From Candidatus Pacearchaeota archaeon (lineage in GTDB: Archaea > Nanobdellota > Nanobdellia > Pacearchaeales > GW2011-AR1), in the NCBI GenBank assembly GCA_016181885.1, contig JACOYJ010000031.1, forward strand, positions 1-22,184: DNA of 22,184 nucleotides. The letters are read 5' to 3'. Of the stretch, positions 1 through 20,538 are shown in pieces; the first letter of the stretch is position 1; each line of letters begins with the position of its first letter. The notes under the pieces were generated by a model. The model had not been told where the DNA came from and searched no databases. It saw only the letters and a program-made list of their open reading frames with translations. A program made the position numbers and the translations under genes.

Positions 1-305
1 TTTTCCTCAAAATCCTCGGCAGGAATTGAGCCAACAAACTGCTCTATTTTCTGCCCATCTTTAAAAAGAACAAAATTAGGTATATGCCTGATTCCATATT
101 TTTGCGCAACGTCGCTTTCTCCATCAATATTTATCTTCCCAAAATTAATCTTGCCATTATATTTTTTAGCAAGCTCCTCAATTATAGGAGTCATCATGAT
201 GCAAGGAGTACACCAATCAGCATAAAAATCTACGAGGACAATCCCCTTTTTTATAAAAGTGGCAAATTCTTTTCCTGATAGTTCAGCAACAAAATCTTCT
301 TTCAT
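1..305 (-). CDS. trxA: Thioredoxin (3' end runs off the left edge of the window)
   Basis: Absent from the ORF track because no stop lies inside the window. The minus-strand ATG at 305-303 opens MKEDFVAELSGKEFATFIKKGIVLVDFYADWCTPCIMMTPIIEELAKKYNGKINFGKINIDGESDVAQKYGIRHIPNFVLFKDGQKIEQFVGSIPAEDFEE. It has a WCxPC redox motif in the usual thioredoxin-fold context. The listed plus-strand ORF 84..278 is its antisense shadow. Confidence 0.85.
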   Translation of the reverse strand, partial: MKEDFVAELSGKEFATFIKKGIVLVDFYADWCTPCIMMTPIIEELAKKYNGKINFGKINIDGESDVAQKYGIRHIPNFVLFKDGQKIEQFVGSIPAEDFEE

Positions 306-1304: not shown

Positions 1305-1862
1305 ATGACATTAACTTTAATCGCCGCTGTTGCAGATAAGAATGTAATTGGTTATAAAGGCACAATTCCATGGAGACAGACAAAAGCAGATAGGCAGTTT
1401 TACAAAGAAGACATGGAGAGATTCAGACAATTAACGATTGGACATCCAGTAATAATGGGAAGAAAAACCTGGGATTCTTTTGCAGAAAAATACAAGCCGC
1501 TTCCAGAAAGAATAAATATTATTGTAACAAGAGACAAAAATTTTTCCATAGGAAAAATAAATTCATCAGAAAGTGTTATTGTTGTCCATTCAATTGAAGA
1601 AGCTTTGAAGCATGAAGAAGGCCCATCCGGGAGATTTTCATCTAATTTATTTGTTATTGGCGGACAGCAGATTTATGAGCAGACAATTGGAATTGCCAAC
1701 GCAATTGAGCTTACAAGAATCCATGAAGAATTTGAAGGCGATGCATTTTTTCCGGAAATTCGTGAAAACGCATGGAATGTTAGAAAAACACAGCCAAGAG
1801 ATGGCTACACTTTTTTTAGCTATGAAAGGAAAAATGATGAAAATCTGAAAAAAAGTATTTAA
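1305..1862 (+). CDS. folA: Dihydrofolate reductase
   Basis: 185 aa. Contains the DHFR motifs LIAAVADKNVIGYKGTIPW, GRKTWDS and VIGGQQIYEQ. Its ATG lies 1 nt after the thyA stop (TAA-A-ATG at 1301-1307). Confidence 0.9.
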   Translation: MTLTLIAAVADKNVIGYKGTIPWRQTKADRQFYKEDMERFRQLTIGHPVIMGRKTWDSFAEKYKPLPERINIIVTRDKNFSIGKINSSESVIVVHSIEEALKHEEGPSGRFSSNLFVIGGQQIYEQTIGIANAIELTRIHEEFEGDAFFPEIRENAWNVRKTQPRDGYTFFSYERKNDENLKKSI

Positions 1863-6986: not shown

Positions 6987-7217
6987 ATGAAAAAGGGGAA
7001 TGCCAGTTTTGGCGGTTTTATTGGGGGATTGGCCGGTTTTTTAGTGGGAATATTTATTCCAGTTGGCGGTGAGCTCAACGGCTCTTTCTTTACAAGAGTG
7101 ACTCAAAGGCTGATAGAAGCAGACACAACAGGATTTATTGTCTCGCTGATTTATGTAGTGATTGGAATATGCTTAGGGTACTCTATTGGCGCAGTTATCG
7201 CCCATTTTAAGAGCTAA
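6987..7217 (+). CDS. Small Gly-rich membrane protein (76 aa, two predicted TM segments)
   Basis: The hydrophobic stretches GGFIGGLAGFLVGIFIPVGG and FIVSLIYVVIGICLGYSIGAVIA suggest two TM segments. I cannot assign a family. Confidence 0.55.
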   Translation: MKKGNASFGGFIGGLAGFLVGIFIPVGGELNGSFFTRVTQRLIEADTTGFIVSLIYVVIGICLGYSIGAVIAHFKS

Positions 7218-7218
7218 A

Positions 7219-7353
7219 ATGAAATCTCCAAAAGTCGTTTTATTTTCAATGATTGCCCTTGGTTTTTTGGCCTTAACCTTTCTTGTCAGCTGGCTTTTTA
7301 TTATTGGCGCAGTTATTTTGGTGTTATTGAATCAGCGTGAATTGAATAAATAA
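7219..7353 (+). CDS. Small membrane protein (44 aa), below the ORF-track cutoff
   Basis: Own translation: MKSPKVVLFSMIALGFLALTFLVSWLFIIGAVILVLLNQRELNK. Its ATG lies 1 nt after the stop of the preceding gene (TAA-A-ATG at 7215-7221). It has two hydrophobic segments. Confidence 0.45.
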   Translation: MKSPKVVLFSMIALGFLALTFLVSWLFIIGAVILVLLNQRELNK

Positions 7354-7356
7354 CTA

Positions 7357-12524: not shown

Positions 12525-12660
12525 TTTAATTTAAGGCTAATGTCCTATAAAAATCTTGGGGTTTTCGACCAAACCACTTAAAAATAGTTATAAATGTTTA
12601 AATACTTATTTTCTATTTGACTTACGCAAAATACAACTGCTAGTAAGTTATAGTGGATTA

Positions 12661-12680
12661 ACATACAACAGGTTGTATGT
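12661..12680. promoter_or_regulatory. Perfect 9+2+9 palindrome ACATACAAC-AG-GTTGTATGT upstream of nrdR-nrdJ
   Basis: The arms are exact reverse complements. It sits in the divergent intergenic region directly abutting the tandem repeats. It is a candidate operator and does not fit the 16-bp NrdR-box consensus well. Confidence 0.3.
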
Positions 12681-12681
12681 A

Positions 12682-12880
12682 TTACGGGATAAAGATTTTC
12701 CTCAGAGGCAAAGAAAGAAAATTGCTTGAGGGATTCTAAAAACCGTAGGTCTTTACGGGATAAAGATTTTCCTCAGAGGCCGAGGTTATTGGGAAGCGAG
12801 AAGAGTTGTTTATATATAACGACTTCACAATGGCCGAGCAGAAAAGAAGTTGCTTGAGGGAATCTTAAAACCGTAGGTTT
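12682..12880 (+). repeat. Two degenerate tandem copies of the nrdR 5' coding segment (units 12682-12752 and 12753-12880)
   Basis: The 28-mer ttacgggataaagattttcctcagaggc occurs exactly twice (12682-12709 and 12753-12780). The unit tails ttgcttgaggga.tct.aaaaccgtaggt also recur (12722-12750 and 12850-12878). Both parts align with the in-frame sequence directly upstream of and into nrdR (12881-12965: acgggattaaaacttctctcggaggc...gcttgaagtgcaaaaaacgctttac). Unit 2 carries a 54-nt or so insert containing TTTATATATAA (12809-12819). Confidence 0.7.
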
Positions 12881-12941
12881 AACGGGATTAAAACTTCTCT
12901 CGGAGGCAAAAAAAAGAAGTTTAAGGAGGAGGCGGGAATGC

Positions 12942-17796: not shown

Positions 17797-18423
17797 TTAT
17801 GAGTTAGAAGTTAAACCAGTAAACCTATCTTTACTGGATTTTTTTCCCAACCCAAGCCCAGAAATTTCTCCAGACTGGATGGTGTTCCTGATGAATTTTC
17901 CGACATAAGGTCTGGCGGCTTCAAGGACTTTGTCCCACGCGGATTCCAAAGCAGTCAATCTTTCTTGATATCTTGTCTCAAGAACAGCAATATTACTTTC
18001 GCATTTTCCATCTGGAGTTGCGCATCTTATGCAATGCTCCCTCCAATTATTTAATGGAGCAAGATCATCTTTTTCTCTTAACAGGTTAACTACTTTTTCT
18101 AATCCCTCAATTACTGGACCAATTTCTGGCTGAGCTATTTTTAACATCCCTAATAGTGGCGCAGGATCATCAACTCCAAATTCTTTTAGAACTTCAGTAT
18201 AAACAACTTCAAGAGGTTTTGATACAAAATTGTTTCCAGCTCTCATTAATGTCTCATAACTTCTCATGCAATCCACCGCCCTCATTCTATATTCTTCTCG
18301 GCCAGTGGTTTGATGCAATCTGCAATAATCAATAACTGCTCTTAGGCTAGGCTGTCTTTCTTTTATGGAATTTGACAATTGTTGAAGCCCATCTTTGATC
18401 TGACTAAAATCTACGTTTACCAT
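17797..18423 (-). CDS. Hypothetical protein (208 aa from the ATG; the track uses TTG at 18435)
   Basis: Clean ORF. The ATG at 18423 sits in a TAAAATG context. I recognise no motif. Confidence 0.55.
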   Translation of the reverse strand: MVNVDFSQIKDGLQQLSNSIKERQPSLRAVIDYCRLHQTTGREEYRMRAVDCMRSYETLMRAGNNFVSKPLEVVYTEVLKEFGVDDPAPLLGMLKIAQPEIGPVIEGLEKVVNLLREKDDLAPLNNWREHCIRCATPDGKCESNIAVLETRYQERLTALESAWDKVLEAARPYVGKFIRNTIQSGEISGLGLGKKSSKDRFTGLTSNS

Positions 18424-18845
18424 TTTATTTCCCAATAATTATTATTTATAAGCTTTATGGTGATTAAATGACTAATTGCTTCGCTAAAACAAAATTCTGA
18501 TAATAAGAAAAATATTTTAAAGTTTGGTTAATATAAACAAGCTGAACAATAAGAACTAAAGTTAATATAAGAAAAATTAATGTTAAAACAAATTAATAGG
18601 AATAAGATTTTAATGTGGGGCAGATAGAACAAGATAATTCAGGTATGTCCGGGTTATCATAAATTATTTTTTAGGCTAGATTAATTTTAAAGAGAATTAA
18701 TATAAATAAGACGAGTTCAAGTCAATTCAAATTAATCAGAAAAATAATTTTTGGGTTGGATTAATATTATCTTGAAGTTGGGTTATTATTAAGAATACAC
18801 CTCTAAATCACGACAGAATTAGTTAGTCGTTGCCTCTGCAATTAT

Positions 18846-19016
18846 TCATCTTCTCTTCTTTTTCTTTCCGAAGAGCGAGAATCCCTTTGTTTTTTTCTTG
18901 CCCTTTCCAGATTTAGCAAGCTTCATTAACTTTGCAACTTTTGACTTTTTGCCCTTTTTGCTTGGGCCTCTTCCACCTTTCTTAGATTTCTTCACACTCT
19001 TTTTTCTCTTTGCCAT
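18846..19016 (-). CDS. Possible 56-aa polybasic (Lys-rich) protein, below the ORF-track cutoff
   Basis: Own translation: MAKRKKSVKKSKKGGRGPSKKGKKSKVAKLMKLAKSGKGKKKTKGFSLFGKKKKRR, with a TGA stop at 18848-18846. About half the residues are Lys or Arg. The frame is purine-rich, so it could be open by composition alone. It follows the micro-ORF chain with an 11-nt gap. Confidence 0.4.
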   Translation of the reverse strand: MAKRKKSVKKSKKGGRGPSKKGKKSKVAKLMKLAKSGKGKKKTKGFSLFGKKKKRR

Positions 19017-19027
19017 GTTACTATAAA

Positions 19028-19213
19028 TTAATTATCTCCGCCTGGTTCATAAGGGTCCATTTTATTAATCTCCTATTCCGCCACCAATTTTAATCTTCAT
19101 CTTCCATTTTTACTAATTTACGGATCCCCAAAGCTCATTTTAACCTGCACCACCATCGTCTCCCATTTTAAAATCCATTTGGTTGCATTTTACTATCCTG
19201 ATCCGCCGCCCAT
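19028..19213 (-). repeat. Array of 7 micro-ORFs / CCATTTTA repeats
   Basis: Minus-strand units: MGGGSG (19213-19193), MQPNGF (19188-19168), MGDDGGAG (19166-19140), MSFGDP (19138-19118), MEDED (19107-19090), an ATT-initiated unit IGGGIGD (19088-19065), and MDPYEPGGDN (19060-19028). The junctions read TAA-A-ATG or a close variant. On the plus strand the motif C(C/A)ATTTT(A) recurs 7-8 times. Confidence 0.6.
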
Positions 19214-19231
19214 TTTCTTTTCTTGAATATT

Positions 19232-19456
19232 GCTGACATATGGACTCGGTGAAGAAAGTGCCTTAAGCATCATCGAATCTAACTTAACCCGCCGATGTAC
19301 TTTAAAGGTTATCTTCTTCGCGCCATAAAACAAAGCTTAACAAGTGTGGATTTCGCGTGAAGAGTTATAGTCCAGTCTCCACGTTAATGGCCGAGCACTT
19401 GACAGAGGCTCATATGGACACACCCTTTTCAGAGCAACCGATCTGTCCTAGTCAGC
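19232..19456 (-). ncRNA. Unclassified structured RNA (about 225 nt)
   Basis: Visibly more GC-rich than its flanks, inside an 1120-nt interval with no ORF of 60 aa or more. Closing helices: GCUGAC (19456-19451) with GUCAGC (19237-19232), GGAC (19448-19445) with GUCC (19245-19242), and UCGGU (19441-19437) with ACCGA (19250-19246). A GNRA hairpin CUCU-GAAA-AGGG lies at 19434-19423. An 8-bp hairpin pairs CGUGGAGA (19383-19376) with UCUUCACG (19363-19356). UUAAGC (19340-19335) pairs with GCUUAA (19268-19263). G:U pairs in two of the helices would become C-A mismatches on the plus strand, so I assign the minus strand. Confidence 0.55.
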
Positions 19457-19479
19457 GTTGAATTATCAGAATATATTCC

Positions 19480-19488
19480 TATATAAAA
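19480..19488 (-). promoter_or_regulatory. Archaeal-type TATA box TTTTATATA
   Basis: The plus strand reads tatataaaa. Its centre lies about 28 nt upstream of the first base of the closing helix of the RNA (19456). Confidence 0.45.
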
Positions 19489-19555
19489 CTATTGTACTCC
19501 TTAAAAGTTAATACATTTTTATCGTAAATAATCTTTAAAAAAATCTAGGCGAGTT

Positions 19556-19816
19556 TTAAAATCGTTTTAAATAAAATGGAAGGGGAAAATATTGCATAAT
19601 TGTCTTATGCTTATCCAACACCGATTGCGGTTCATTTGAGCCGCCGTGTGCATAACCTCTACTAAAACTATCAGATTCTATTTTGCGCAGACAAACTCTA
19701 TTTTTCTCTCTTTGAAAAATATCACGAGAAACTTTAGCCCCATCAATCTTATAGTTAATAGTCCATCCTAATTCATCTCTTCCCTCGAGCATCTCTAATG
19801 TTCTCTTTAATTTCAT
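19556..19816 (-). CDS. Hypothetical protein (86 aa)
   Basis: ORF divergent from the dph6-like gene. I recognise no motif. Confidence 0.45.
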   Translation of the reverse strand: MKLKRTLEMLEGRDELGWTINYKIDGAKVSRDIFQREKNRVCLRKIESDSFSRGYAHGGSNEPQSVLDKHKTIMQYFPLPFYLKRF

Positions 19817-19869
19817 GTTACTTTTGCATCCTCAAACTTTAAAAACATTTATATCCATTAGTCGATATA

Positions 19870-20538
19870 ATGAAACTCGGCGTATTATTTTCTGGAGGAA
19901 AGGATTCCTGCTATTCGGCGTATATTGCCAAAAAGCAGGGGAACGAATTGGCTTGCTTGATCACTATTCATTCAGAGAACAAAAATTCTTACATGTTTCA
20001 CACGCCTTCAATAAAGAAAACTGAGGCTCAGGCAAAAGTCATGGGGATTCCTTTAATGGTGTTTAAGACAAAAGGTGAAAAAGAAAAAGAATTGAAAGAT
20101 TTAGAAAAGGCGATAAAAGAAGCGATAAAAAAATACAAAATTGAAGGAGTTATAAGCGGGGCAATTGCATCGAGATATCAATATGACAGGATAGGAAAAA
20201 TATGCGAAAAATTGAAGATAGAATCATTCACTCCTATTTGGCAGAATGACGAACTAGAATATCTTAATGAATTAATAAAAAATAAATTTAAAATAATAAT
20301 TACAGGAGTTGCCGCTTATCCTTTGGATGAAAAGTGGCTTGGAAAAGAAATAAACAGGGATTTTGTTGATAAAGCAGTTGATTTGAATAATAAGCATAAA
20401 ATTCATATTGCAGGAGAGGGTGGAGAGTTTGAGACTTTTGTTCTTGACTGTCCTTTATTTAAGAAGCCATTAAAAGTTAAAAAAAGCAAAATCACAGGAG
20501 AAAAAAACAGCTGGAGGCTTGAAATAGATGTGGAATGA
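19870..20538 (+). CDS. dph6: Diphthine-ammonia ligase / MJ0570-family PP-loop ATPase
   Basis: 222 aa. Has the PP-loop LFSGGKDS at the N-terminus. GAIASRYQYDRIGKICEKLKIESFTPIW and GEGGEFETFVLDCPLF are characteristic of the family. TATA-like CATTTATAT lies about 22-25 nt upstream of the ATG. Confidence 0.78.
   Translation: MKLGVLFSGGKDSCYSAYIAKKQGNELACLITIHSENKNSYMFHTPSIKKTEAQAKVMGIPLMVFKTKGEKEKELKDLEKAIKEAIKKYKIEGVISGAIASRYQYDRIGKICEKLKIESFTPIWQNDELEYLNELIKNKFKIIITGVAAYPLDEKWLGKEINRDFVDKAVDLNNKHKIHIAGEGGEFETFVLDCPLFKKPLKVKKSKITGEKNSWRLEIDVE

Follow-up and report, generated by a model that had tools for sequence, protein, structure and literature searches.

The stretch of DNA analyzed here, called the window, is 22 kb (22,184 nt) of forward-strand coordinates from a metagenome-assembled genome of Candidatus Pacearchaeota (DPANN). 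Three features follow one another on its minus strand: a conserved structured RNA of about 225 nt (19232..19456), an array of very short open reading frames (ORFs) at 19213-19028, and a conserved, coding gene for a polybasic micro-protein of 56 aa (18846..19016; MAKRKKSVKK...GRGPSKKGKKSKVAKLMKLAKSGK...). An original prediction, made from the letters of the window, had drawn attention to the array, which is the main subject of this study.

Anatomy of the array

Seven micro-ORFs can be read on the minus strand from 19213 to 19028 with stop-N-start junctions between them. Re-reading of that strand gave all seven, and their junctions, exactly as claimed in the original prediction. The first unit, U1 (MGGGSG, 19193..19213), begins at ATG 19213 and stops with TAG at 19195-19193, after which comes TAA-A. 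U2 (MQPNGF, 19168..19188, ATG 19188) and U3 (MGDDGGAG, 19140..19166, ATG 19166) each have a TAA-A-ATG junction, and U4 (MSFGDP, 19118..19138, ATG 19138) is separated from the next ATG by a 10-nt gap, ATTAGTAAAA. U5 (MEDED, 19090..19107, ATG 19107) leads through TAA-A-ATT to U6 ((I)GGGIGD, 19062..19088), which has ATT at the start position (19088) and closes with a double stop, TAA TAA, then A-ATG. U7 (MDPYEPGGDN, 19028..19060) runs from ATG 19060 to TAA 19030-19028 and stops 11 nt before the polybasic ATG. An eighth micro-ORF, MNQAEIINL (19018..19050, ATG 19050), overlaps U7 and ends TAG-TAA-C-ATG on the polybasic start at 19016, which is the same stop-N-start layout as at the array junctions.

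The stop-to-start gaps are 4 (TAG-TAAA-ATG), 1, 1, 10, 1 and 4 nt (TAATAA-A-ATG), and the last step to the polybasic ORF is 1 nt after TAG-TAA from MNQAEIINL or 11 nt from U7. The gaps in the array keep co-directional ORFs within about 10 nt of each other, which is the spacing of cistrons coupled by termination-reinitiation (TeRe). The start of U1 is reached through an A-rich linker, AAUAUUCAAGAAAAGAAA (19214..19231, minus strand), of which AUAUUCAA is common to relatives. An alternative frame of 23 codons, MSAIFKKRKWAADQDSKMQPNGF (19168..19239, minus strand), begins at an AUG in the closing helix of the RNA and ends at the U2 stop. Two independent Logan assemblies, L001 and L002, carry the array without any sequence difference, and an assembly artefact is thus ruled out.

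Motif density, frame and codon phase

CATTTT starts on the plus strand at 19058, 19105, 19136, 19164, 19186 and 19211, and AATTTT at 19086. Read on the other strand, AAAATG occurs six times in the 190-nt array against 0.27 expected, given 64 copies on both strands of the 22-kb window. The Poisson tail for this density is 5e-7, or about 1e-4 when all windows are allowed for. Elsewhere in the window no stretch holds more than three copies. AAAAT[GT] was found seven times in the array and at most five times in 5000 dinucleotide shuffles of it. The over-density that had been put forward by rough base-composition reasoning was therefore borne out, since shuffles never reached the observed count. 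The possibility raised alongside it, that the motif is equally dense in other intergenic DNA, was not (0.24 per 190 nt per strand). An 8-mer recurs 5-7 times in the array, with G-rich tracts alongside.

The start-to-start spacings are 25, 22, 28, 31, 19 and 28 nt. All six are 1 mod 3 (P = 0.0014), and therefore each stop is in frame with the preceding start. The array does not behave as a minisatellite, in which copies arranged head to tail would be about 70 % or more alike and have a constant period: the periods vary from 19 to 31 nt, and only the best unit pairs reach 64-79 % identity. Tandem Repeats Finder (TRF) found no tandem repeat in 19028-19213, and an exact-repeat finder likewise did not recognize the array. 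Because TRF found none, the duplications are not recent.

G occupies codon positions 1, 2 and 3 in 68, 44 and 3 % of the window array codons, with only 1/34 in the third phase. The corresponding values are 52, 42 and 17 % in L048, a related locus described below. The phase of G tracks the ATG of each unit though the frame shifts by +1 at every junction, and the observed value was reached in 0 of 20000 trials with a random phase per unit. GGAGAU, GGUGAU and GGAGG abound in the unit bodies; they read as Gly-Asp and Gly-Gly codons and at the same time resemble Shine-Dalgarno (SD) sequences. The RNA of the array is less stably folded than 193 of 200 shuffles (z = +1.69).

The flanking RNA and the polybasic gene

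A search of metagenome contigs for the RNA with the exact pattern GGACTATAACTC, a gap of 35-50 nt and GAAGATAACC matched at least 120 contigs. Over 58 sequences and 59 pairs, 92.3 % of cells were paired, compared to 34-41 % in slid controls. The covariation score was 0.433 against 0.12 or less in controls, and both sides had changed in 41 pairs. G-U pairs are frequent, so the RNA was assigned to the ORF (minus) strand. It has closing helices GCUGAC/GUCAGC, GGAC/GUCC and UCGGU/ACCGA, a GNRA hairpin and a four-way junction; its long arm has the invariant loop GGACUAUAACUC, and its 3' arm comes after the invariant GAAGAAGAUAACC. Single-sequence folding gave a z of only -0.5 on either strand, a misleading result given the structure later proven by covariation. 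A TATA-like box, TTTATATA (19480..19487, minus strand), lies about 24 nt upstream of the first helix and is the presumed promoter of a unit made of RNA, array and ORF. TATA-like A/T-rich blocks occur at a similar upstream distance in many homologs (alignment A4). A scan for sigma-70 promoters and intrinsic terminators was uninformative for an archaeon.

Rfam 15 had nothing at gathering score in the window and nothing over the RNA at E <= 10 (18400-19900), and at E <= 1 in 14 homologous loci it gave no match to the RNA. A tRNA and tmRNA search found none. Identity with RNase P RNA or signal recognition particle RNA was rejected by eye (four-way junction, no P4-like or helix-8 motifs) and by the lack of an Rfam match. 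No viral contig matched the RNA pattern in a scan. A literature search for the invariant strings of the RNA returned nothing relevant, and no paper linking Pacearchaeota with "structured RNA".

The closing region of the RNA, 19456-19441 with 19253-19232 (minus strand; columns 32-51 and 249-271 of A4), is built to a constant plan that runs from an outer helix through a 2x4-nt internal loop, the invariant 4-bp helix GGAC/GUCC and a 3-nt bulge to an inner helix. This loosely recalls the archaeal bulge-helix-bulge site, not in its canonical form, and raises the possibility of excision or circularization. An AUG within the closing helix (CCAGAUGUCAGC) opens a frame MSAIF..., noted in the window, L034, L086, L087 and L094. 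In the first three of the related loci the AUG is in frame with the polybasic ORF, and in some lineages the frame runs straight in (e.g. MSAIFTKTKMKKRG...).

In about 105 loci the next feature after the RNA is a Lys/Arg-rich ORF, 35-75 aa long, that contains the motif GR.PS.KSK.SKVKKLIKLAK; counts of loci here and below are among the matches listed. In 88 distinct sequences, the entropy of the core motif at codon positions 1, 2 and 3 is 0.52, 0.45 and 1.31, and the polybasic ORF is a genuine coding gene. Its protein has no Pfam, NCBIfam or PDB match. A protein-pattern scan of metagenomes with the ORF yielded no confirmed match, whereas the exact-DNA pattern for the RNA succeeded. At least 100 metagenome contigs carry both RNA and ORF. 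For 88 of 108 loci the distance from the RNA motif GAGUCC to the start of the ORF is 2-51 nt; a separate promoter for the ORF could not fit into so short a spacer, and co-transcription of the two is therefore likely. The neighboring genes of this module vary and appear to include membrane proteins, ribosomal-protein-like sequences and enzymes. The original prediction was right both about a structured RNA and about a polybasic ORF without SD or TATA box. The two form a widespread conserved pair of which the array is not a part.

A synteny search through the diphthamide-synthase-like neighbor showed no conserved upstream context in 18 GTDB genomes, and nhmmer found nothing. The 86-aa neighbor at 19556-19816 is an orphan, found only in this organism.

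Occurrence of the array in relatives

The closest counterpart of the array is in L048, where the RNA is 78 % identical and six micro-ORFs lie at the same place. These units, V1-V6, read MGGGIGD, MERRIINMHPEGG, MGDMDT, MEPNVGN, MGDRIDGWSR and (MVK)MGDDGDTWC. Four of the junctions (TAA-G-ATG, TAATAA-T-ATG, TAATAATAA-A-ATG and TAA-A-ATG) consist of one base after one to three stop codons, and there is one longer gap. The cores differ (TAAGATGG, TAATATGG and TAAAATGG). Four of the five spacings are 1 mod 3, which makes 10/11 together with the window (P ~1e-4 if independent). The V1 ATG lies 37 nt after the 3' motif of the RNA and so falls within the 2-51-nt range of the main start. The longest two micro-ORF chains in 1.52 Mb of fetched related loci are those of L048 and the window, both at this position. 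L031, in which the RNA is also 78 % identical, has an 82-nt degenerate remnant with (ATT)GDDGEGETG, MMVKEKLGDGSGE and MDQENN-TAA-C-ATG onto the main ORF, the last being an analogue of the MNQAEIINL exit in the window.

Individual units could be matched between loci. U1 is orthologous to V1 of L048 and to the ...GDGSGE tail in L031, and a 20-nt run, AAAAGAAAATGGGCGGCGGA, is identical in L048. U2 resembles V4 with a 3-nt difference in length. U3 and V6 share an identical 14-nt start, ATGGGAGACGATGG, and U3 also resembles a unit in L024, MGDEDSG. U6 differs from V1 by two synonymous changes and the start codon, and AAAAATTGG is also present in L031. The lengths of the collinear pairs U1/V1, U2/V4 and U3/V6 differ by exactly 3 nt each. 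Within each array the units are paralogous and about 50-79 % alike. The orthologous peptides diverge past the first four codons (SG vs IGD, GGAG vs DTWC), from which it seems that selection maintains the start, the frame and the stop of each unit and not the peptide itself. Where the array exists, it is the stop-N-start geometry and the frame that are conserved, not the UAAAAUGG core. The comparison indicates that a small clade inherits the array and that selection has shaped it.

Another possible explanation is that the peptides are the product. The locus would then be a polycistronic micropeptide locus whose Gly/Asp-rich peptides of 5-13 aa (MGGGIGD, MGDDG.., M.PN.G.) might cooperate with the polybasic protein or the RNA, or counteract them. 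Related peptides do recur within and between lineages, as in the shared GGGIGD of U6 and V1 with its two synonymous differences. The micro-ORF peptides are 57 % Gly+Asp+Glu and adjoin a gene with about 45 % Lys/Arg, and the L048 frames have been kept though that array cannot feed the ORF. We nevertheless consider this improbable. The orthologous peptides are free to vary once the first four codons are passed, unit number and order vary by lineage, and most module-bearing lineages are without such peptides. Furthermore, in-frame reading of SD-like GGAGAU/GGUGAU yields Gly-Asp richness with no need for a peptide function.

The array is restricted in its distribution. L021, which was reached through a homolog of the downstream 212-aa gene, has an RNA 3' part about 92 % identical to that of the window and, directly next to it, a polybasic ORF that is 80 % identical. 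In L025 and L026 the polybasic homologs come 17-37 nt after the RNA. About 100 more distant homologous loci have no Gly/Asp-rich micro-ORFs in the spacer. Of the ~105 loci, only the window, L048 and L031 have micro-ORFs rich in Gly/Asp/Glu, apart from the single unit of L024 downstream of the ORF. Such micro-ORFs are not kept across homologs of the main ORF in the manner of conserved regulatory upstream ORFs. The original prediction had stated that homologous loci keeping the RNA and the ORF without the repeats would speak against a conserved element, and this is what was seen, both in L021 and in the 88/108 loci with spacers of 2-51 nt.

Other sequences have entered the same region. The L024 unit, AAAAATGGGCGACGAAGATAGCGGTTGA (MGDEDSG; 100-150, plus strand), lies just after the polybasic stop on a contig without the region upstream of the ORF. 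At the corresponding place the window has an unrelated 24-nt insert, ATAATTGCAGAGGCAACGACTAAC (18845-18820, minus strand), and L021 has nothing there. The spacer insertion of L046 has an ATGA overlap. In L054 a truncated duplicate of the polybasic gene (MCNCGCKKKKKRKKRR; 1482-1620, plus strand) is joined via TAG-C-ATG, and in L088 and L135 the spacers hold two hydrophobic small ORFs joined by TAA-ATG. Five other long spacers have no ATG. The other insertions in the spacer are also either arranged for coupling (L046, L054, L088 and L135) or free of ATG (the five long spacers), and the spacer itself is an insertion hot spot. Stem-loops are present in the spacers of L041, L049, L085 and L126.

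These findings bear on a neutral origin, in which slippage between short TAAAATGG repeats duplicated the polybasic start region and left an untranslated or functionless spacer somewhere between expansion and decay, the triplets coming from GGN/GAY slippage and not from selection. Such an origin would account for the paralogy of the units and for the patchy gain and loss of the array, which is full in the window and L048, degenerate in L031 and absent from L021 and ~100 loci. It would also fit the insertions of other kinds at this hot spot (hairpins, hydrophobic small ORFs and a truncated polybasic copy) and the lone unit downstream of the ORF in L024. However, decay at such divergence should give 1-2-nt indels and lost starts. 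The frame is instead kept in 10/11 spacings at ~50-79 % unit identity, 3/3 orthologous pairs differ by multiples of 3, the third codon phase is nearly free of G (1/34), and ATG and stops are retained while the junction bases change. We therefore regard a purely neutral by-product as possible but on the unlikely side. The earlier suggestion of decayed duplications of a gene start fared in a similar way. The origin by duplication is largely supported by the paralogous units and by the ATGG that they share with the polybasic gene, but the term decayed does not suit frames that are maintained.

It had also been suggested that UAAAAUGG with its G-rich tail is a repeated binding site for a protein or RNA on a non-coding transcript, to which DNA boxes of a promoter or origin on either strand can be added. 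The 8-mer and the adjacent G-rich tracts agree with this, and a single-stranded-like array would suit binding. On the other hand, the core is not kept in L048, where TAAGATGG and TAATATGG take its place and the junctions change (TAA-G-ATG, TAATAA-T-ATG, TAA-A-ATG) while geometry and frame stay. The spacings obey the mod-3 rule instead of a helical or fixed period, the codon-phase composition is left unexplained, and no Orc1/Cdc6 or other partner gene is nearby. A binding-site array is thus highly improbable.

Two specific candidates were dropped. A match to the C/D-box small RNA sR52 (RF01306) scored 16.7 bits (E = 1.3), below the family's gathering score of 50, and was considered noise. Origin recognition boxes were rejected for want of a nearby orc1/cdc6 gene and in view of the codon rule that the spacing follows.

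A single protein made by serial +1 frameshifts at the stops, from U1 into the MAKRKK... frame, was also weighed. The frame walk 2-0-1-2-0-1-2-0-1 does end in the polybasic frame, but any sequence can be walked in this way by +1 shifts at stops. Under this model an ATG at each unit start would be unnecessary. The L048 chain is ~110 nt from the ORF with many stops between, and a Gly/Asp-rich N-terminal extension is found in 0 of ~105 polybasic homologs. We find this explanation barely conceivable.

A proposed chain of coupled start modules

The reading that we favor, with about an even chance of being correct, is that the array is a lineage-specific, fast-evolving chain of TeRe-coupled upstream micro-ORFs that arose from duplicated start modules. 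The U1 ATG (19213) lies 28 nt after GAGUCC, within the 2-51-nt range of the usual polybasic start, and the units carry the ATGG start of the polybasic gene. Because the first start sits where the polybasic gene normally begins, the array is read as duplicated start modules of that gene. Each module would be made of a purine/G-rich, SD-like body of Gly/Asp codons, one to three stops, one base and ATGG.

In this model, a single transcript driven by the TATA box at 19487-19480 would contain RNA, array and ORF. A ribosome starting at U1 would terminate 1-4 nt before the next start and reinitiate there, and this would be repeated along the chain. The final step to the polybasic ATG would be taken via MNQAEIINL-TAG-TAA-C-ATG or across the 11-nt gap after U7. 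Ribosomes would thereby be passed on, probably with losses, over a 200-nt insertion; without the chain, this insertion would cut the ORF off from the site at which it originally started. Co-transcription, translation and the effect on the polybasic ORF are all inferred, and the chain may feed, tune or merely tolerate translation of the ORF. For duplexes with GAUCACCUCCU, taken as a putative anti-SD, the predicted energies reach -7 to -10 kcal/mol at about half of the restarts, compared to a background median of -2.4, whereas the remaining restarts are preceded by weak duplexes.

The same junction is used elsewhere in the window. TAA-A-ATG joins thymidylate synthase to DHFR (1301) and an ATP-cone protein to ribonucleotide reductase (13290), and so two of the three gene pairs cited in the original prediction stood. 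The third, at 7215, leads from a 76-aa ORF to a candidate small ORF that was only read as membrane-like. This unlisted ORF of about 45 codons (MKSPKVVLFSMIALGFLALTFLVSWLF...) is at 7219-7355 (plus strand), and the 7215 junction is probably a real small gene pair.

Several observations weigh against a chain that serves the polybasic ORF. The near relative L021 has no array between RNA and ORF. The array is dispensable for the RNA-ORF module, since ~100 loci are without it and in L031 it is degenerate. In L048, ~110 nt separate the end of the chain from the polybasic ATG, and a TATA-like TTATTAAAA lies at -24 to -16 of that start; a relay to the ORF is therefore excluded as the function that has been conserved. 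The SD scores are weak at U1 (-0.3) and at the main ORF (-1.7). One unit has ATT for ATG, and at two junctions of 10-11 nt coupling would be only partial. A-rich TATA-like blocks in the array (e.g. ATTAATAAAA, 19070-19061) could give the ORF its own promoter. Finally, the frame statistics are only partly independent, as the units are paralogs. The earlier proposal of a reinitiation relay or translational delay leader was thus upheld in its coding-like geometry (in-frame stops, multiples of 3, codon phase, start context and weak folding) and not as a conserved relay.

A more far-reaching version of the coupled-module reading would make the conserved RNA a previously undescribed DPANN riboregulator or ribonucleoprotein RNA that controls initiation at the start codon adjacent to its 3' end. 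The relay of 7-8 micro-cistrons would carry its decision over ~200 nt to the polybasic gene, with the Gly/Asp codons doubling as in-frame SD tethers. We regard this version as distinctly unlikely. A bolder variant would have the Gly/Asp micropeptides themselves work as functional partners, either with the polybasic protein or with the RNA.

Comparison with known systems

TeRe is established in archaea. In H. volcanii it works at overlaps or at +1 nt; a distance of 13 nt costs ~60 % of its efficiency, ~22 nt abolishes it, and no more than the final 15 nt of the upstream ORF are needed (PMC10666635). In archaea that are largely leaderless, reinitiation often benefits from SD motifs located within the upstream ORF (Huber et al. 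2019, PMC6728339), and a native +1-nt gene pair has been documented in Haloferax volcanii (Huber et al. 2019, PMC6728339; 2023 follow-up PMC10666635). The array resembles archaeal and bacterial TeRe gene pairs in its same-strand ORFs, -4 to ~+10 nt apart, and may do so in putative SD-like motifs at the 3' end of the upstream ORF. In contrast, the known cases couple two full-length genes, often for subunits of one complex, whereas here 6-8 cistrons of 5-13 codons are chained in a leader, and the chain is not conserved across the gene family. A limited literature search found no description of a serial chain of 6-8 micro-cistrons with 1-nt junctions in archaea.

Eukaryotic leaders with several upstream ORFs provide a second comparison. 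In yeast GCN4, mammalian ATF4 and the cauliflower mosaic virus (CaMV) 35S leader, 40S subunits scan over tens to hundreds of nt under control of eIF2 or TAV. These leaders share with the array several very short upstream ORFs and would share a main-ORF flux that depends on repeated termination and reinitiation, but in the window a single nt separates stop from start at the junctions, as it does in prokaryotic coupling. Bacterial leader peptides and attenuators likewise have a short leader ORF with biased codons, and Gly and Asp dominate in the window. They differ in that an attenuator usually has a single leader ORF with alternative hairpins, while the window array is unstructured with no competing hairpins, and its downstream gene is Lys-rich and unlinked to Gly or Asp supply. 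The Drosophila tarsal-less/polished rice gene has tandem micro-ORFs on one transcript that encode related short peptides, as the array may. Its peptides have a strictly conserved motif and a demonstrated function, whereas the window array keeps only the first codons and the frame.

Other features of the window

Most leading genes in the window have a TATA-like box ~25-35 nt before the ATG and no SD, and look leaderless. A strong GGAGG-type SD is present at a few starts, such as 437, 12942 and 20593, and an A/T-rich TAAA or TTAAA just before the ATG is common. Upstream of an ATP-cone (NrdR-like) gene, the region 12660-12925 (plus strand) contains long imperfect direct repeats, with ACGGGATAAAGATTTTCCTCAGAGGC twice and a third, diverged copy. 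The same region has TTGCTTGAGGGA.TCT.AAAACCGTAGGT twice and a 20-nt palindrome, ACATACAACAGGTTGTATGT, at 12663-12682. Operator boxes or a duplicated leader are possible explanations of these repeats. The intergenic stretch 18436-18845, which separates the polybasic gene from the 212-aa orphan-family gene, is 22-26 % GC and has (G)GTTAATATAA-like boxes at ~18527, 18561, 18697 and 18760, along with TTGGGTT(G/A) motifs.

Significance

If the array is translated as proposed, it would show that termination and reinitiation can naturally follow one another many times in a row in an archaeon. Such a case would be directly relevant to the strictly local nature of reinitiation, which is lost beyond ~20 nt, as a long insertion would be bridged without ribosome scanning. 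SD-like sequence and Gly/Asp coding would then be two readings of the same bases. The pair of RNA and mini-protein, which is without an Rfam, Pfam or NCBIfam family, may be a larger find than the array, and it would offer a concrete new target for DPANN RNA biology and genome annotation.

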